From positions 89,285-153,284 of the forward strand of contig NIVC01002230.1 in assembly GCA_002269645.1 (NCBI GenBank): a stretch of DNA of 64,000 nucleotides. Reading direction: 5' to 3'. Under the pieces are notes generated by a model. It ran no database searches, had not been told where the DNA came from, and worked only from the letters and a program-made list of their open reading frames with translations. Positions 48,420 to 60,777 of this stretch are shown here, piece after piece. Source of the DNA: Macrostomum lignano. Its lineage: Eukaryota. Each line of letters starts with the position of its first letter. The first letter of the stretch is position 1. Made by a program: the position numbers and the translations under genes.

Positions 48420-48629
48420 TAGTGTCAGTCTGTTGAATAGTGTTAGGATATGTTGAATAATGTCAGGATATGTTGAATAATGTCAGAAAATGTTGCATAT
48501 ACGCTCGTTGCATCATTCTGTGTTGAGTATAGTGTCATGAGATGTTCAGCATAGTGTCAGATGTTAAATATAGTGTCAGGAGATGTTCAATATAGTTTCA
48601 GGTGTTTATTATAGTGTCGGGGTATTTTC
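48420..48629. repeat. Degenerate ~20-22-bp array (ATAGTGTCAGGAGATGTTCAAT), left half; resumes at 54752-54870
   Basis: The same unit occurs on both sides of the LTR element inserted at the TTTTC TSD. Confidence 0.8.
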
Positions 48630-48848
48630 TGTCGCGTCGTTTAACTAAGAGTTCAACTGAGTAGCACGATGATTTGGTAAAATAAACGATATCTCAGTTT
48701 CGATATATTATTCATAAACGATGCTAACACAAAACGATGCTCAATATATAATTATTAACGCACTGGGGTGGCGGGGCGCACGGGACACGAAGCCGGGGTG
48801 GTGGGTACACTGGATGTACAGTCAATATTTTAATAGTTAATCAGCTAG

Positions 48849-51800
48849 TCACTTAGTCATAAGTACAGCGGCAGAACCCAGCACTGCCTCATCCCCCCCC
48901 CCTTCGAAACGGATAGGGGGCACGCCTCGAGTTGACCGAGCTGGGTAGCGGAGTGCTGCTGTTTGACTTGGGCCTTGTTCGGATTCGGTGGGCGGGTCCC
49001 GACTGAGTTCGCCGAGCGGGTCCTGACCGAGTTCGCCAGGCGGGTCCTCACCGAGGCCGCAGGGCGGATCCTGACCGAGTTCGATAGGTAGGCTCTGGCC
49101 TAATCGGTTTGGCTGGACCTGGTCTTCTACAACGCGGCTCAGCTGATCCGCATGCGCCAGGGCGATGCGACCGCCTTGACGAGCGATTAGGGCAGTGTTG
49201 GTCCCTTTCTGCACGACGAACTCAGCTCGCTCCTGACGCTGCTGATCTCCAGGCGTGTACCACAGGCTCGCTCCAATTGGTGTGCGCATGGTTATCGGGT
49301 TGCGTAGTTGTCGGCCCATGAGCTGCGACGGGCTCTGCTGGCGCCCAGCATGCGGAACACACCTGCAGTTTAGCAGTACCCTGGACAGGAACGACTCGTA
49401 GCTTTCGGACATGTCCCACGCCGCAGATGCTCTCTTGATAGACTGGACCATCCGCTCGGCCAAGCCGTTAGACTCAGGGTGTCGCGGGGGAGTCTTGATG
49501 GCGCGGCAGCCGATAATTCTTTCCAGCCAGGCGATCAGATTGGCGTCGTGGAACTCGGCGGCGTTGTCGCTGACCAGCACATGAGGCACGCCGTTCCTAG
49601 CAAAGACCGCCTGCAACACCCGCTTGACTGCCGCCGCGTCCCTGTTTTGCACTCGTACGGCCTCGGGCCAGCCGGACATAGCGTCAACTAGAATGAGCAG
49701 GAGTCCGACCCTCGGCACGCACGCATGATCCATGTGGACTCTGTGCCACGGCTTTTCCTCGTCGGGCCACCTGTGGACACTCTCCAGACCACTCGGGCGC
49801 AGTCTTGAGCAGGTCGAGCAACCTCGAACGTAGGCCCCCAAGCAACAGGTACGCGCGTATTACGCGCATATTTGGAGCGTAATGTCATACACAGCGCGTA
49901 AAACACGCGTATTACGCGCGTTATTATACGCTAGTATATTTAGTGCGTTTTAGACGCGATACTTTGCTCAAAGCAAATAAAAAATGGTTAATTATTCAAA
50001 TATCCAGTAAAGCTAACAGCGTGCACCATGCGTGTGAACAACGCATGTGTAACGCGTTCGCATGCTTTTATTTAGTATGTTAGTATTTTATTTAATTCTT
50101 TGTTTCCTATCGTTACAGTAGAACCATTCTTTTCAATAGTTATAGCATACTCAGTATGTGTTTCGTGTTAACATTAGTTGGACTTAAGCCAACTGCATGT
50201 AATCTGGAGCATGCAACACTTGTTTTATGGATTACTTTGCTTTATATGACTTATATCATAGTTAATTATAGCTAGATAGCGATATATTAAAATATAGCTA
50301 TTTGATACATTTTATCATGCATTAATTTGGCTTCTTTTATTACTTTGAAATATATTACATGTATATATTGGATTTTTATGTTTCAAACTTAAATGGCCTC
50401 AAAGGCTTTTAAAAAAGATTGCTTTATTGTTGTTTCCTTTTTAAATTTATATTCACTTATTTAACTAGAGTTGCATGTAGTTGCTTTTTGTTTGAAAATA
50501 ATTGTTAATCCAAATCATTTTACTTTTCACTTTCACTTTTCACTTTCACTTTTTTCTTTTTAACTCGGTCAGAATTGTGTGTATATTTTCGTGTGCTTTA
50601 GCGGTTTTTTCTTTTATGCTAATAACCACTACTCACTACTCATCACTACTCGTTAATTTAAGTTGCTCTTTCATTACACTCTTATGTATCTATTTGTTCT
50701 TAAATTATTTTTTAAAAATAAAAATTTGCAGTTCATTTATCAGAACTCCGTTTTCGGCAACGTCCCTACGGGCTGGCATTTTGATGCACATAAACTGACC
50801 AATATTTGTATTGATTTTTCCTATACTTTATTTACTAAAAGCCACTTCAGCCTTGGATTGGCTCAGCTAACGTTCCTTCTGGGTTATTCGATGTAATTAA
50901 AGCCTTATGACAATTAAGTACGCTTGCATGAATATACGAATCCGCGGAACCTATATATACATGTATGATTAGTCCTGTTCCTGTACCAGTCTGCAGTTAG
51001 CATTGCGTTATTACAGCGTATTTTCTGTGTTACAAAAGGCGCGCATTTTGTGTGTTCGCTTACGCGCGTAAAACGCGAACGAAAATGCGCGTTTTATGCG
51101 CGTAATACGCGCGTACCTGTTGCTTGGGCCTCGACGTCGTTGCAATAGCCAGGCCACCAGGCTGAGTTCTGTAGGCGAGCGTTGAGCCAGATCCCTGATG
51201 CGTGTCGTGCACGATTCCAAGAACGCTTTGTCGGAGGACAGCCGGGATGACTGGGCGATCACCGTAGCAGAGAACTCCGCCGTCGGTCGTGAGGGCGTGT
51301 CGGATGGCCTTGAAAGGTCGTTCAGCTGGCGAGCAGTTTGACCATCTGTTGATAGCAACGCATTTAATAATATCAACCAGCAACCGGTCCCTTTGGGTCT
51401 CTGATTTCAGCTCCTGCCACGGAATCACAGCCTCGCCAGTCCAGTGAATGATGCTTTCCGGCCGCTCTGTCAGCTCGTTGCTGCTGTCACCTTCGAAATC
51501 CAGCCGTGAAAGTGCATCTACTTGCGGAATCGATTCGCCTTTAGTGTAGATTATGTCATGGTCAAAGGCCATCAGTTTGATTGCCCATCGGAGAAGTCTC
51601 GCATTGGCAACCTTCGGCAACTGGCGCCTCGACCCGAAGATGAATTCCAGCGGGCGATGATCCGTTCTGAGTGTGAAGCGCGACCCTAATAGGAACTGTT
51701 TCGCACGCTCCATAGCCCAGACGATCGCCAGCGCCTCTCTCTCGATGTTTGAATACCGTGCTTCTGCACTGCTCAGTCTCCGGCTGAAGTACATGATCGG

Positions 51801-53170
51801 GTGGTTTCCCTGCGAGAGGATCGCTCCGATGGCTTTCTCGCTAGCATCGGTAGTGAGCGTGGTCTCTTTGTGCTTGTCATACGGCTTGATTACAGGCTCG
51901 CTGCAGAGCAGATCCTTGATTCGCGTGAAGGCAGCTTCCTGGGTTGGGCCCCAGACGAACTCAACGTTTCGGCCCCGGAGTTGATTGAGCGGTTCTATGA
52001 CGTCAGAGTAGTTCTTAATAAACCTCCCGAAGAAGTTGGAAAGTCCTAGAAACGATTAGAGCTGCTTTCTGTCCTTCGGCGAGTTCACGGAGCGAATTTT
52101 TCCGACCAGATTGGGGTCCGGGGTGATCCCGCTCGCGCTGATGCTGTAGCCGAGGAATCTGACCTCCGTTGCCATTCCAGCAGCTCGCATCGTCTGGAGA
52201 ACGTGCTGCACTTTGCTCCTTAATTCGGCGTTGGATTTCGCTCCCAGGAGGACGTCATCCTGGTAGACAATCTTGTTGCTGACATCCTGTAGGATTGTTT
52301 CCAAGGCTTTCTGGAAAATGGCCGATGCAGATTTCAGCCCGGGAACCAGCCTTTTGTAGCGGAAGAGACCCAAAGGTGTCGCGATTGTCGTCACCTCTCG
52401 GCTATCTTCATCGAGCTCGATTTGCAGATAAGCATCAGAGAGATCCAGTTTAGCAAAGTGCGACATGCCTGCTATCTCAGAAAAAATCGTCTCCATCTCC
52501 GGGATCGGGTAGGTGTCATTGCATATCTGGTGATTGACACCAGCTTTAAAATCGGCACAGACACGAACCTTTCCATTTGGTTTGAGCACGTTGACAATAG
52601 GCGATGCCCACTGGCTGCCTCCGGGAGGGACCGCCTCAATGATACCCTCGGATTCCATTCTCTGCAGCTCGCGCACCACCAAGTCTCTGAGGTGTAGCGG
52701 CACAGATCGGGCAGCACAATAGAACGCTTTGGCTCCTTCCACCAGTCTAATCTTAGCTTTGAACCCTTTGAGGCACCCGAGCTGCTGGACCGCGTTGATG
52801 GTGACCGCGTCTTCTTGGAGCTTGATGTTGTCCATGCCAAGCATGCTTCTTCCATGCTTCTGCTCCGCGGCGGTGACAACCAAGTCAATCGTGACGAATT
52901 TCGAGTTGGTCTCGAGTGACGCATTGAATTCCCCGAGGCAGGCGATGCTGGAGCCGTCGAACTGCCAGAGAATTCTCCTTCACTTGCGCAGGGTGGGCTG
53001 GCCCAGCTGGCGCCAGAGGTTCTGCGGAATCAAGCTGACCTCAGCTCCGGTGTCGACTTGCATTGAGATGCCCTGGCCGTTGATTTTGATGGTCTTGAAA
53101 AGGCCCACTTTAGCTCTGTTGGGACTGAGAGTATACACGTCTGCTTCTTCTGCATCGAGTGCGATTTCCT
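48849..53170 (-). pseudogene. pol: Pol of the Mag-like element (PR, RT, RH, IN), frameshifted and interrupted
   Basis: ORF pieces 52980..53570, 52056..52883, 51060..51794 and 48849..49841 carry successive pol motifs. Confidence 0.88.
49837..51128. mobile_element. Non-autonomous DNA transposon with CCC termini and a 2-bp TSD (EnSpm/CMC-like)
   Basis: TIR CCCAAGCAACAGGTACGCGCGTATTACGCGCATA; CC duplicated; AT-rich core. Excision restores integrase ...CNDVEAYVRGCSTC. Confidence 0.88.
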
Positions 53171-53375
53171 GATGGACAGCTCGCGATCTGCAGACAGCCG
53201 CAAAGTGATTTCTTTTTTGGCACTTGAAGCATTTTTTGCCGTAGGCTGGGCAGTTGCCTCTCGGGTGATTGGCACCACAGAACCCGCATTTGATTGACGG
53301 CTGCGGCTTGGCAGGTGAGGAGACTCCCCTCTGTTGACCGGCGAAGGCGATGTCAGCAGGAGCCGGCGTGTTGTA

Positions 53376-53975
53376 GGGGTCCATGAGATTTGCCCGCCGA
53401 GAATTGCCCGCCGAGATTTGCCCGCAGTGCAATTTGCCCGCGAGTGAATTGCCCGCGAGCGAGTTGCCCGCCGAGTTTTTTCCCGCCGAGGTTTGCCCGC
53501 AATGATTCAATGATTTTTTCCAGCAGCGCATTTGGCGACGCGGCAGATTTTGTCTGCATTGCCTTCCCATGCTTAGTACGTGTTAATCTCAATAAAGAGA
53601 TTTACACGATCAAAACGTTTTGATAGTAACTGCATATCAAATGCATATTTTGGGGGTAGCAATGTATAGACAGAATCTAGCTGCCAAATGCGCTGCAAAA
53701 AAGGATCGCGGGCAAACCTCGGCGGGAAAAAACTCGGCGGGCAATTCGCTCGCGGGCAATTCACTCGCGGGAAAATTGCATTGCGGGCAAACCTCGGCGG
53801 GCAATTCTCGGCGGGCAAATCTCCACGGGCAATTCGCTCACGGGCAAAATGCACTGCGGGCAAATCTCCGCGGAAAAGCTCGGCGGGCAAATCTCCACGG
53901 GCAAATCTCCACGGGCAAATCTCCTGCGGGCAAATCTCGGCGGGCAATTCGTCTGCGGGCATTTCTCGTGCTCCC
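53376..53975. mobile_element. Foldback-type non-autonomous DNA transposon inserted in gag
   Basis: 8-bp TSD GTGTTGTA (53368-53375 and 53976-53983); GGG termini; inverted arms of GCGGGCAAAT subrepeats. Excision restores gag ...IRDYNTPAPADIAF. Confidence 0.9.
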
Positions 53976-54443
53976 GTGTTGTAGTCACGGATCTGCTCAA
54001 GCTGCTGCAAATTCTGCAAAATCCTGTCGAGTGGCGTTTCTCCATCTTCGTTTTGTAGGCGCTCCAAGTTTCTTTTTTTGTGCTCTGAGGAGTTGAGGCC
54101 GTCAATTAATCGCATGGTAATCATGTCGTCCTCCTTTGTCTGCTTGCTGCCCAGCTTTTCAAACTCGCAGTGTGACGTAGCAGCCCTCAGCCTCCGGTAG
54201 TAGGCTATGACGGTCTCACCCGATTCCTGCTTCAGGCTGAGGAATCTGGTGCGTTCGGCAATTACAAGTGATTTTTTCGGCCGGATCGTCTCGTCAACGA
54301 GCTTTTTGATGTCATCGAATTTCATCTCATCAAGTTTTTTTGGTGCTGCCATTAGAGATAGCGTGCGAATTGCCTGAAGGCCGGCCTTAGATAAGAATAG
54401 GTCAGTTTTGTCCCGAGCCTCATCCGAGTCTGTTAGCTTTTTG

Positions 54444-54485
54444 ATGGGTTTCCCCGCGCAGGTTCGGATCCTGCTTGCGACGACA
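54444..54485 (+). other. 3' half of a tRNA-Ser copied at the primer-binding site
   Basis: ATGGGTTTCCCCGCGCAGGTTCGGATCCTGCTTGCGACG-ACA resembles the variable arm, T arm and acceptor strand of eukaryotic tRNA-Ser, and lies adjacent to the LTR edge. Confidence 0.75.
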
Positions 54486-54894
54486 TTGTCGCGTCGTTTA
54501 ACTAAGAGTTCACCTGAGTGGCACGATGATTTGGTAAAATAAACGATATCTCAGTTTCGATATATTATTCATAAACGATGCTAACACAAACGATGCTCAA
54601 TATATAATTATTAACGCACTGGGGTGGCGGGGCGCACGGGACACGAAGCCGGGGTGGTGGGTACACTGGATGTACAGTCAATATTTCAATAGTTAATCAG
54701 CTAGCCACTAGTCAAAAGTACAGCGGCAGAATCCAGCGCTGCCTCATTTTCAATATAGTGTCAGGAGATGTTCAAGATAGTGTCAGGTGTTGAATATAGT
54801 GTCAGGAGATTTTCAATATAGTGTCAGGAGATGTTAAATATAGTGTCAGGTGTTGAATATAGTGCCAGGTGTTAAATACGAGTCGTGTAATGTC

Positions 54895-56049: not shown

Positions 56050-58299
56050 ATGCAGAAGCCGCAGAAGTACGACTGGAAAGACTCCAACCTTGCTCTGTTC
56101 GGCAGCAAGACCGAGAAGGATGTGAAAAGTGAGGTCATTAATGAATCATGCTGTTGTAGGTTAAGCTACCTCATTGTAGCCAGAAGCGTTCAAGTAGGCC
56201 AAGTTGAAGAGTCACTGGTCACTGGTAGATTCTTATAGAAACTTCAGCTGTGGGGATGTTTACTTCAATATAGTGGATTCAAGAAATCCGTTTCGGTCAT
56301 CACTAGCGTGTCTTGAGTCTTAATCGTAGATCAACCTTGGACAAAGCACGTACTTGTTGCTTCCTTTAAACTTCGAAAGTCCACAAGGTCGGAAGTTGAC
56401 CAAGTCAGACAAAAACTGACTTGGAATAATTTTGCCCGCAGAGGCCGCGTCCGAGGTCGAGACGGCCTGGCAGCCGGTGAAGGAGTGCACCAGCGACGAG
56501 CTCTTCGTGTGGCGCATCGAGAAGTTCAAAGTAAAGGCCTGGCCCAAGGAGGATTACGGCAAGTTCTTCAGCGGCGACTCCTACATCGTGCTCAATGTGT
56601 ACAAGGACCCCGACGGTGATGAGCTGCTCTACGATGTGCACTTCTGGATTGGAAAGCACAGCACTCAGGTGCGGGAGCTTTTGAGCACTAGATGTAGCAC
56701 TAGCAGTTAGCGTTTCATTAAGCTTAAATCTTGAATGTCCTCAATCAGGACGAGTACGGCACGGCCGCCTACAAGACCGTGGAGCTGGACACCTTCCTGG
56801 ACGACAAGGCCGTACAGCATCGCGAGGTTCAGGAGCACGAGTCCTCGATGTTCAAGTCCTACTTCAAGACCATCACGTAAGCGAGTGGGCTAGATTAGCA
56901 ATCCATTCTATGCCCTACATCCATGTCAGGCTAGATTCTCAGTTTACTGTAGTCTTTCTTCCATTTTTGCTAGATTAAAAATCCACTTTCCCAACCTCTC
57001 GCTGCGCCGAAAGTTATCTCAAGGGCGGCTGCGCCACCGGCTTTCGGCAGGTGAAGCCTGAGGAGTACAAGCCCCGACTGCTGCACTTCTGCGGAGTCCG
57101 GCGCAACATCGAGGTCAAGGAGGTCAAGCTGACCAGGAAAGCTCTCAACTCCAATGACGTTTCATCCTGGACCTCGGCCGCACCGCCTACCAGTGGAACG
57201 GCAAAACCTGCAACAAGGACGAGCGCATCAAGGCCGCCGCTTTCCTGCAGCAGCTGGAGAATGAGCGCCACGGCAAGACGCAGACTTTCACCCTGGATGA
57301 GAACAGCATCGGCTCCGAGCACAAGTTCTACCAGAGCCTGCCGGACGTGCCCTACGCCAAGAAATCCTCGGAGGTGAAAAGCGATGTGCGCAGCGGCAAG
57401 AAGGCCATGTTCAGGTGCGCATCTGTTGGCTGATGCTGGCCTGTCTTGCACCCACCCCATCCTCCGCACGGGCTTCAGTCCCGCACCCACCTTATCCTCC
57501 GCACGGGCTTCAGTCCCGCACCCACCCCATCCTCCGCACATGTTTCAGTCCCGCACCCACCTTATCCTCCGCACAGGTTTCAGTCCAGCACCCACCCCAT
57601 CCTCCGCACAGGTTTCAGTCCCGCACCACCCCATCCTCCGCACATGTTTCAGTCCCGCACCCACCCCATCCTCCGCACGGGCTTCAGTCCCGCGCTCTCA
57701 CCCATTCTCTCTCTATCTCACTCATCTCACCGTCTCATCTTACCATAGGCTGTCGGACGAGTCGGGCAAGCTGCAGTACTCGCTGGTCTCTGAAGGCAAC
57801 TGCCCCAGGTCCATGATCAATGAGGATGTAAGCGTAACTTTAGTTCTCAGCTACTTTATGAGTAGTATTGGTTGCAGATCATCACATACTTGACCGTTCG
57901 CACGTCCAGGATGTGTACATCATCGACACCGGCGTGGAAATTTTCGTATACGTCGGCGCCAGGGCCTCGGACGCTGAGAAGATGAACGCGCTGCAGTATG
58001 CTCATGTGAGTGATTGCTCGAGTTTGAGATAACTTTATTAAGTTAGTTTGTGCGGTGGGGGGGGCTGTGCCTTTGGAGTTCAAATTCAGAGAGTTATAGT
58101 ATGCATTACCCGCTGAGCTAATCTGCACCCCAGCGTTTAAGATAGTCTCTCACAAGACCCCACGATGAGGCTCTCTACTAGACAGCTGGTCCATTTCGAA
58201 CCGCAGGACTACCTGAAGACCACGCAGCATCCGCTGATTCCGGTGACGGCCTGCCGCGGCAACATGAAGAACCCACAGATGGAGAAGGTCCTGGACTGA
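56050..58299 (+). CDS. Three-domain gelsolin-like (severin/fragmin-type) actin-severing protein, 7 exons
   Basis: Exons 56050-56128, 56442-56668, 56749-56876, 57014-57414, 57749-57827, 57910-58005 and 58207-58299. Motifs [64 protein letters not shown]. One T is missing at 57160-57162 (DVF-ILD). Confidence 0.93.
57450..57695. repeat. Intronic ~35-bp repeats (CCGCACCCACCCCATCCTCCGCACGGGCTTCAGTC)
   Basis: Array in gelsolin intron 4. Confidence 0.88.
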
Positions 58300-59673
58300 T
58301 CGCTAACGAATCCTACTAATAGTAATAACAAGAACAAGACTGCTCGCTTCCTATGCGAACCCAGCAGCGCTAATCCGGGCCCGGTAGCTGATCAGCTGCC
58401 TGCATGTGGGCACCGTCTGTTCAGTACTTATGCCATTTAATCTGCTGAATAACTTCTGATTAGTTGAACATTTAGCCCTATACATGTAATTTATTATAAT
58501 GATCAGCTGACCGCAGCTCTCACTAAACTTTTTAGTCGGTTTTCAATACTCTGCAATCAGTTTTATTTATTTAAAGCAATTTCAAGCAATTTTAAGCTGG
58601 CTTATCAGCTTTTAATTAATAATCTTATTAATAATGGAAACATTAATAAACACGCGGTGCCAGTCAACTACCGCATAAAATACCACAGCTAACGGATTTT
58701 ATATTTCTCACCTGCTGTGTTTCATTGGAAATTGATTTACAATCTTGCCAATTTAAACAAAAAAAAACAGTTGTAATGGGAAAAAATGCAGGCTTTTTAA
58801 AGTTACGACCCAGGAATAGCGGTTTGTCACGGAATGATTTTGTCCGATTTTTTCGAAAAGGAATTCGAAAATTGTTATTGTTGAAGAGCGGCAATCCATT
58901 TTAGCTCGTAACATCCATCTGGAAGTCTGAAGAAGCCTGTCTCATTTCCAATATTCAATGATGAGGCATTTCAACCTTAGTTTGTTCCCAAGGGTCCAAG
59001 CCACATCCCAATGTCTGCTTCCAGCCTTCTTCCCCGAACAAAGAACTGCGTTTAATTCGAGACTGCACTTATTGGAATTCTTCAAACACGAATTACCTGG
59101 TCAGTGTGACTCGATCTCCAACGGTGTGCGTGTGCCCAGCTAGAAGCCCCTGGATATCTGTTCATGCCGTCATGCTTCAGTCTTCCCCAAATTGATCGGG
59201 AAGACGTAAATTTTTTTTGATTATAAGCGCAGACTTTCGTTAAGTCACTCCAAACGGAATGCCGATGGCGCCAAACTGGATTCATCTCTGATCGAAGGGC
59301 TCCGTCTAGTAAACAAATACTCTCTCTATTATCTTCAAAATTTCATTTCTGTCAAAGCCTCGCTAAAAACTAGCTTATTTTGCACCAGCTAGCATTGAAA
59401 ATTACGCAATAGAGTTGAATGACGAAAACTGTTTGCACTCGATGGCATTGACCATTTTTAGCTAAGAACAGCAAAGTTTATGTTTAACTTTTGTCAAAAA
59501 TATTTCATTACCACGCTAATTGTTACTGCGTCAAATATTGTGACGCCAATAAACAGCAGGTGATAAAATATTTCTCCTTGGCATTTAAATACTATAAAAA
59601 GCAGCTAGCTCTCCGCAACGAATCGCCACTCTACACTCTCAGAAAATCTCCAACCGCATTCTCCAACTCTGCA

Positions 59674-60777
59674 ATGGTACTCAGACAGCCCGCAATGCTA
59701 AGCTCTTTGCTGGCCGCCATCGCCTGCTGCATCATTTGTGCTTCAGTCGACTGCGAGAAAGTCAGCAGTGCGAATAGAATAATAATCAGGTACCCACCAT
59801 CTAGATGGATCCGGTACGGAGGCAACGCCAAGAGCATGTCGAGAAGGATCAGGATCGGAGGCAACGCCAAGAGCATGTCTAGAAGGATCAGGATCGGAGG
59901 CAACGCCAAGAGCATGTCTAGAAGGATCAGGATCGCAGGCAACGCCAAGAGCTTGTCGAGACGGATCAGGATCGGAGGCAACGCCAAGAGCATGTCGAGA
60001 AGGATCAGGATCGGAGGCAACGCCAAGAGCATGTCGAGACGGATCAGGATCGGAGGCAACGCCAAGAGCTTGTCGAGACGGATCAGGATCGGAGGCAACG
60101 CCAAGAGCATTTCTAGAATGATCAGGATCGGAGGCAATGCCAAGAGCATGTCGAGACGGATCAGGATCGAAGGCAACGCCAAGAGCATGTCGAGAAGGAT
60201 CAGGATCGGAGGCAACGCCAAGAGCATGTCGAGACGGATCAGGATCGGAGGCAACGCCAAGAGCTTGTCGAGACGGATCAGGATCGGAGGCAACGCCAAG
60301 AGCATGTCGAGAAGGATCAGGATCGGAGGCAACGCCAAGAGCTTGTCGAGAAGGATCAGGATCGGAGGCAACGCCAAGAGCATGTCGAGAAGGATCAGGA
60401 TCGGAGGCAACGCCAAGAGCATGTCGAGAAGGATCAGGATCGGAGGCAACGCCAAGAGCATGTCGAGACGGATCAGGATCGGAGGCAACGCCAAGAGCTT
60501 GTCGAGAAGGATCAGGATCGGAGGCAACGCCAAGAGCATGTCGAGAAGGATCAGGATCGGAGGCAACGCCAAGAGCATGTCGAGAAGGATCAGGATCGGA
60601 GGCAACGCCAAGAGCATGTCTAGAAGGATCAGGATCGAAGGCAACGTCATGAGCATGTCGAGAAGGATCAGGATCGGAGGCAACGCCAAGAGCATGTCGA
60701 GACGGATCAGGATCGGAGGCAACGCTAAGAGCATGTCTAGACGGATCAGGATCGGAGGCAACGCCAAGAGCATCTAA
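59674..60777 (+). CDS. Putative secreted cationic tandem-repeat protein (signal peptide + about 25 x IRIGGNAKSMSRR), 367 aa
   Basis: Hydrophobic N-terminus MLSSLLAAIACCIICASVDC; 39-bp units without indels; recurrent variants are silent (TCG/TCT, AGG/CGG) or conservative (Met/Leu). Confidence 0.7.
   Translation: MVLRQPAMLSSLLAAIACCIICASVDCEKVSSANRIIIRYPPSRWIRYGGNAKSMSRRIRIGGNAKSMSRRIRIGGNAKSMSRRIRIAGNAKSLSRRIRIGGNAKSMSRRIRIGGNAKSMSRRIRIGGNAKSLSRRIRIGGNAKSISRMIRIGGNAKSMSRRIRIEGNAKSMSRRIRIGGNAKSMSRRIRIGGNAKSLSRRIRIGGNAKSMSRRIRIGGNAKSLSRRIRIGGNAKSMSRRIRIGGNAKSMSRRIRIGGNAKSMSRRIRIGGNAKSLSRRIRIGGNAKSMSRRIRIGGNAKSMSRRIRIGGNAKSMSRRIRIEGNVMSMSRRIRIGGNAKSMSRRIRIGGNAKSMSRRIRIGGNAKSI

Follow-up and report, generated by a model that had tools for sequence, protein, structure and literature searches.

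During plus-strand strong-stop synthesis, a stop at the methylated adenosine of position 58 (m1A58) normally limits copying of the primer tRNA. In a vector experiment covering one round of retroviral replication, Pulsinelli and Temin (1991) reportedly observed large deletions that arose from errors of strand transfer. Two HIV-1 reports place the normal plus-strand stop before m1A58, and the modified bases that follow act as further stops in this virus (PMC8599865, PMC13191261). Hardy et al. 2025 described 44 defective HIV-1 proviruses with tRNA inserts of 7-54 nt, five of which (5/44) were changed at position 58 (PMC12657518). For the yeast elements Ty1 and Ty3, DNA copied from the tRNA is depicted as mostly a dead end, the primer site usually not being inherited from the tRNA (PMC5371799). 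Sequencing of animal tRNAs has established that inosine 34 is read as G and that reverse transcriptases make errors at m1A58 and at m3C32, and mismatches at these sites are known for Ser tRNAs (PMC11417395, PMC8062790).

The locus described here lies in a stretch of 64,000 nt from Macrostomum lignano (contig NIVC01002230.1, positions 89,285 to 153,284; hereafter the window). It belongs to an LTR retrotransposon on the minus strand, and the features of the element given below are read on that strand. The 5′ LTR (54487..54746, 260 nt, TGA...ACA) and the 3′ LTR (48630..48891, 262 nt) have TG...CA ends and differ by 7 substitutions and 2 gap columns over 262. A 5-nt target-site duplication, GAAAA on the element strand, flanks the element on both sides (5′ copy 54747..54751, 3′ copy 48625..48629), and a polypurine tract (48892..48904) stands before the 3′ LTR. 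Pfam matches follow each other in the order PF13975, PF00078, PF17917 and PF00665, that is protease, reverse transcriptase, RNase H and integrase. The end of gag with its zinc knuckles, the protease, the reverse transcriptase and the RNase H occupy 51127..53376, interrupted by stops and frame changes, and the integrase region (PF00665) covers 48905..49836. LTRs with a target duplication, this domain order and a host-tRNA primer site together with a polypurine tract are all present; the element is a Ty3/gypsy retrotransposon. Its gag remnant (53975..54445), which begins at about codon 33, matches sister copy L162 at 97.7%, and the copy as a whole is about 96% identical to a sister. Besides several stops, two later insertions break it further, one inside gag that is MITE-like, with long inverted repeats at its termini (53377..53974), and one with 43-nt inverted repeats at its ends between RNase H and integrase (49837..51126). 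LTR pair, polypurine tract and 5-nt target duplication are intact. The copy is defective and has no evident function; most likely it is an accident that recorded the state of its primer.

The element sits within a minisatellite array, upstream of exons at 56440-57420 of the window that lie about 1.7 kb from the 5′ LTR and that we take, from their motifs, to belong to a gelsolin/severin-like gene. At 59488-60777, an open frame of about 24 tandem 39-nt units follows a signal-peptide-like stretch. Each unit encodes a 13-residue repeat ending in RR-containing motifs, and the array resembles a neuropeptide precursor, or else a coding-neutral minisatellite.

At the left end of the retrotransposon region, beside the 5′ LTR and starting 1 nt from its end, the plus strand carries a tract (54446-54485) that corresponds to the 3′ part of tRNA-Ser. 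Over 40 contiguous positions, 38 agree with host tRNA-Ser, the differences being a G at tRNA position 58 (54467 on the plus strand; A in all host genes found) and an A at position 74 (54483). On the element strand the tract consists of the ordinary 15-nt primer-binding site of the family, pairing with tRNA-Ser 76-62 (54471..54485, with C74 read as A at 54483), and of 25 extra nt complementary to tRNA-Ser between position 61 and the beginning of its variable arm (54446..54470), which no sister copy has beyond position 59. The initial annotation had reported 42 nt of tRNA-Ser next to the 5′ LTR. Tract and location are correct, but the contiguous match is 40 nt long, and 42 nt (54444-54485) are reached only if one G is missing from a run of four. 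The G at the m1A58 position and the ACA in place of CCA that it had noted are both present, as independent short-read contigs confirm; the ordinary primer site of about 18 nt that it assumed does not apply, the normal site of this family measuring 15 nt. The join is not an assembly error: it recurs in contigs of two public runs, one from each of two studies (X1, X3), which cover the whole tract as well as its two junctions and show 0 differences and 0 gaps. ARAGORN and Rfam, run on the window, did not call the fragment as a tRNA, as expected for half a tRNA, and the tract showed neither a full cloverleaf with terminator nor insertion hallmarks of its own. We also considered the ACA as a modification signature and rejected it, given that CCA is found in the other 13 events described below; it is probably an ordinary mutation.

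The tract runs directly into gag (junction 54444..54446), as had been stated, yet it lands near codon 33 and not in mid-gag. Counted from the start of the primer site, its 40 nt stand for 95 nt of sister sequence (net -55), and about 80 nt of gag coding sequence are lost. The view that gag lacks its N-terminus and start codon thus holds for the early coding sequence only: the ATG, which overlaps the first two bases of the primer site (54484..54486), has been kept, but it is out of frame with the remaining gag and reads 17 codons from 54486-54484 before a stop. A leader has not been deleted, as the family has none; the gag ATG overlaps the start of the primer site in 13/13 sisters. The microhomology that was to be looked for near 54444 amounts to 1 shared base, or to CAT (3 nt) in a gapped alignment that assumes the loss of one G from the G4 run. 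A single nucleotide is matched or exceeded at 29% of positions. The shared bases number 3, 2 and 0 nt in events B-D, one junction showing a 9-nt repeat of tRNA sequence, and the duplex-energy ranks are unremarkable; at 0-3 nt homology is not the driver of the join. A hairpin loop-out model using GCGCG upstream together with the junction bases gave a score of 6 nt, including one bulge, which places it in the top 1.8% of 4170 positions. It was not relied on, since the score was devised post hoc and its duplex energy ranks just in the top 14%.

A search of the animal's own genome returned 53 matches, among which three loci have this join and 14 are further copies of the family, 13 of them readable (n = 13; L017, which contains a run of N, was left out). 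The three loci represent one insertion, their upstream flanks being 99.9-100% identical over 1500 nt, and a fourth, more diverged allele of the site is a solo LTR with the same target duplication. Thus, among the 4 alleles of the window site, three full-length ones carry the join, one is a solo LTR and none is intact. In the sisters the primer match is 15 nt in 9, 14 nt in 1 and 18 nt in 1, with two mismatches within the first 15 nt in the remaining 2. The 18-nt sister, L009, matches the tRNA over exactly 18 nt and ends just before A58, at the canonical stop; the others diverge after 14-15 nt. A tRNA match longer than 18 nt occurs in 0/13 sisters, so the prospect that intact family members might carry the same long tract, which the comparison of primer sites and leaders was meant to probe, is dismissed. 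In three sisters of families B and C (L151, L152, L149), the sequence a few bases past the short primer site resembles, in degenerate form, the complement of tRNA positions ~46-53; this might be either a longer contact with the primer or the relic of a read-through tract captured long ago.

Host tRNA-Ser genes were collected with a pattern for the tRNA 5′ end, which is blind to position 58. Eighteen genes were found (10 AGA, 5 CGA, 3 TGA), all of which encode A58 (18/18), so that a host gene with G58, the other outcome that had been envisaged, does not account for the tract. CCA is encoded in 0/18. Because the tract includes the CCA position (ACA in the window, CCA in the other 13 events), it was copied from mature tRNA. 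It ends before the anticodon and is compatible with the 10 AGA genes or with two CGA genes. Two of the tRNA-Ser(AGA) genes (L086, L097) carry a C40-to-A change that breaks an anticodon-stem pair.

The window copy is one of a series. A pattern search of the genome for extended tRNA-Ser tracts gave 27 matches (19 extended tracts, 5 genes and 3 ordinary 18-nt sites), and reversed control patterns gave 0, indicating that the tract matches are not due to chance. The 19 tracts resolve into seven insertions, A (the window) and B-G. A generic pattern added seven insertions, H-N, with five primers of presumed Ser(GCU) type, one Leu and one Lys, putative labels that follow general tRNA sequence features. 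Its 37 matches comprise 13 known Ser events, 8 new tracts (7 events), 1 full tRNA-Glu and 15 sequences interpreted as tandem repeats or chance matches, 10 from the surrounding DNA and the other 5 from matched text equal to that of one of these. The full-length tRNA-Glu match was dropped as part of a tandem tRNA array without an LTR pair: at this locus (L188, G000:C1626) a full-length tRNA-Glu(CUC) followed by CCA stands in tandem with more tRNA-Glu-like sequence, and no LTR pair lies in range.

In total, 14 separate insertions with four primer types and inserts of 40-63 nt were obtained. A second LTR lies in range in 9/14 and gag-pol directly downstream in one more; for events G, H, I and J (4/14) no second LTR or pol match was found within the DNA fetched around them. 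The landing sites vary between gag, the gag-protease border, reverse transcriptase, integrase and the end of the LTR, and the sequence removed ranges from 95 to 3677 nt in the five events measured. Events L and M have identical LTRs, and the letters of event B are those of three assembly contigs. Extended tracts make up 16/229 exact 15-nt Ser-type sites; the resulting 7% can only be a ceiling, given that several families have a pairing of just 10-14 nt and that loci occur in duplicate on the haplotypes. Re-transposition of defective copies was considered and is not supported, as loci within an event share their upstream flanks (event G is ambiguous owing to simple repeats). Event C has the tRNA base within its primer site where the two sisters examined do not match the tRNA; hence, this site was templated by the tRNA, as expected from plus-strand copying. 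Event F, with a UGA-type body, has T67 vs C67 in 3/3 UGA genes, which simple plus-strand inheritance does not predict.

Some loci deserve separate mention. At L067 and L069 (G000:C1210, C2379) the UGA-type tRNA-Ser body carries T67, for which heteroduplex repair, a later CpG change or an unassembled gene are candidates. At L180 (G000:C2171) about 51 nt of tRNA are followed by a return to the end of the LTR and then by another short primer site, with gag-pol matches downstream; by its arrangement this locus represents an apparent read-through without loss of internal sequence. L172 (G000:C273), beside a 5′ LTR, has a tRNA-Lys-type tract with T58 and then repeated re-copies of the tRNA 3′ end and the LTR end, suggesting several template switches. 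A Leu-type tract of about 63 nt at L183 (G000:C3738) has G58 and identical LTRs, and its anticodon reads GAG, which would fit inosine 34.

Over the 14 events, the base at position 58 is T five times, G three times, C once and A five times (non-A 9/14); in events for which a second LTR or gag-pol was found, non-A58 amounts to 7/10. When events A-F were compared with the host genes, 4/6 differed at position 58 vs 2/296 at other positions (Fisher p 6.6e-7), a background lowered by search patterns that constrained positions 53-76 and counted between tract ends set by eye. Event G was left out of this count since an indel shifted the ungapped comparison; with it, the background is 18/347 and p 3.5e-4. 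A34 is replaced by G in 3/3 clean AGA-type tracts that reach position 34, and a UGA-type tract keeps T34. Similarly, C32 is replaced by T or A in 2/2 AGA-type tracts that pass position 32, and one Ser(GCU) tract keeps C32. Five tracts stop at positions 31-36, so that the putative second barrier would be C32 and not position 37 or 54. Judged from the letters of these tracts, the mismatch pattern is what a reverse-transcription signature of m1A58, I34 and m3C32 would look like, and we infer that the bases in this animal are m1A, inosine and m3C. The idea that G58 records a tRNA modification, put forward from the window copy, is strengthened by the concentration of mismatches at 58, 34 and 32 across recurring insertions, with the modifications themselves deduced from them.

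How the join may have formed can be outlined as follows. Plus-strand synthesis, primed at the polypurine tract, would copy the LTR and then the attached primer tRNA. In the window copy it would have passed m1A58, misread the methylated base and halted near the variable arm. After transfer the 3′ end would no longer be matched, making in-register resumption impossible, and synthesis would have resumed with the help of 1-3 shared bases at a point some 80 nt into gag. The join would have been made at second-strand transfer, before integration, and the plus strand presumably prevailed when the mismatched duplex was resolved. Our main reading, to which we assign a probability of roughly 0.9, is hence that of a defective Ty3/gypsy copy that received 40 nt of mature tRNA-Ser in its gag by read-through of m1A58, misreading and resumption at a wrong site. 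The initial annotation had proposed aberrant reverse transcription past m1A58 and strand transfer into gag, and its proposal finds support in the sisters, the A58 genes and the thirteen further insertions. What can be seen directly is the anatomy of the copy, a tract missing from the sisters, A58 in the host genes and a recurrence with mismatches at 58, 34 and 32. Against the reading stand the age of the window copy, which is not young (7 of 262 between the LTRs), one mismatch at an unmodified site, C74, the poor microhomology, T67 in event F, and the 4/14 events in which the DNA fetched shows no second LTR or pol match. As to the timing of the join, no intact allele is found at the window site (0/4, one being a solo LTR), and the primer site is tRNA-derived in event C and not clearly so in event F.

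Read-through and mispriming could have taken place as proposed with A58 unmethylated and faithfully copied, in which case G58 would be a later point mutation. An LTR divergence of 2.7% and the C74 mismatch demonstrate post-insertion change, and 5/14 events have A at 58. However, a per-site divergence of 1-2% cannot account for changes at a single position in 9/14 events (binomial probability below 1e-8 even if 5% is assumed), and G58 recurs in three unrelated events. We regard this explanation as very unlikely for the series; for the window copy alone, a later mutation to G58 is possible at about 1 in 50, by our own rough estimate. Only slightly better odds, still poor, are given to a break in an already integrated element, repaired when the primer site annealed tRNA-Ser, reverse transcriptase extended it and the product was end-joined into gag. 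Short or absent microhomology would suit such a repair, T67 of event F would then be element-derived, and a tRNA-linked deletion of an integrated HIV provirus has been proposed (PMC12220202). Repair would nevertheless require that breaks fell exactly on the primer site in 14 cases; the primer site of event C has the tRNA base and not the family base, the identical LTRs of L and M leave little time, and the three full-length alleles of the window site all carry the join, the fourth being a solo LTR.

An independent insertion at the primer site, be it a tRNA pseudogene, a SINE or a tailless retrocopy, might instead have produced the tract, much as whole CCA-bearing tRNAs at a mosquito gypsy primer site have been read as an insertion (PMC3286476). 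Here, however, a flanking duplication and an A-tail are both lacking, the register with the primer site is exact, and family sequence is deleted rather than displaced. Moreover, 0 non-gene pattern matches read as a 40-mer lay away from LTRs where the LTR could be checked. This origin is scarcely credible. Read-through of m1A58 followed by resumption in gag remains the reading that we prefer.

The mechanism as such is already known from defective HIV-1 proviruses (PMC12657518); new are the setting, with its unusually clean internal controls, and inherited retrotransposon copies that record three putatively modified sites. A literature search, with thin coverage of subscription and older papers, returned no paper that reads tRNA modifications from inherited LTR retrotransposon copies. 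That L009 stops at 18 nt and 14 insertions overshoot provides in vivo, inherited evidence that m1A58 is a normal but leaky plus-strand stop in an animal LTR retrotransposon, and it identifies one way in which dead element copies recurrently arise. By itself the window copy would be no more than a curiosity, and it is the series of insertions that carries the value. Should the signature hold, assemblies would allow tRNA modifications to be deduced, and dated by LTR divergence, for species that lack tRNA-seq. We consider it reasonably likely that animal genome assemblies form a minable, datable fossil tRNA-seq, in which germline retrotransposon accidents would preserve m1A58, I34 and m3C32 of the primer tRNAs in the particle at insertion and yield modification maps and read-through rates from DNA alone, short-primer-site gypsy elements having such accidents at a few percent of insertions.

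Among known systems, delayed second-strand transfer in HIV-1 has in common with our insertions that the primer site runs on into the tRNA, that the insert marks a deletion junction and that the LTRs are intact (PMC12657518). The window copy itself has in-register tRNA past position 58, a mature-tRNA template and a deletion junction into the same element, as in the HIV-1 type. The inserts are 40-63 nt long here compared with 7-54 nt in the proviruses, and position 58 is changed in 9/14 compared with 5/44. Furthermore, we are dealing with inherited animal Ty3/gypsy elements, four primer tRNA types and changes also at 34 and 32, whereas the main HIV-1 account covers positions 58 and 54, although its supplements may show more (PMC12657518). 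The minor read-through products of HIV-1 likewise share the stop before m1A58 and a read-through DNA that mismatches the other strand, but these intermediates come from in vitro or cell culture work on a lentivirus with an 18-nt primer site, whereas the window family pairs 15 nt (PMC8599865, PMC13191261).

Among gypsy elements, a Ser primer, short LTRs and a 5-nt duplication resemble the Mag rows of Table 1 in PMC3286476, a likeness to the Mag lineage in these features alone. The same paper reports cqgypsy_1 of Culex, which also bears a long CCA-containing tRNA sequence at its primer site; in that case, however, two whole tRNAs with a flanking 26-nt duplication were read as an insertion, and the available text describes no modification signature (PMC3286476). 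Yeast Ty1 and Ty3 resemble the family described here in their short primer site, and a site that is not inherited from the tRNA fits the 12/13 sisters with less than 18 nt. They differ (PMC5371799) from the families studied here, in which plus strands copied from the tRNA do sometimes integrate, as seen in L009 and in the 14 events.
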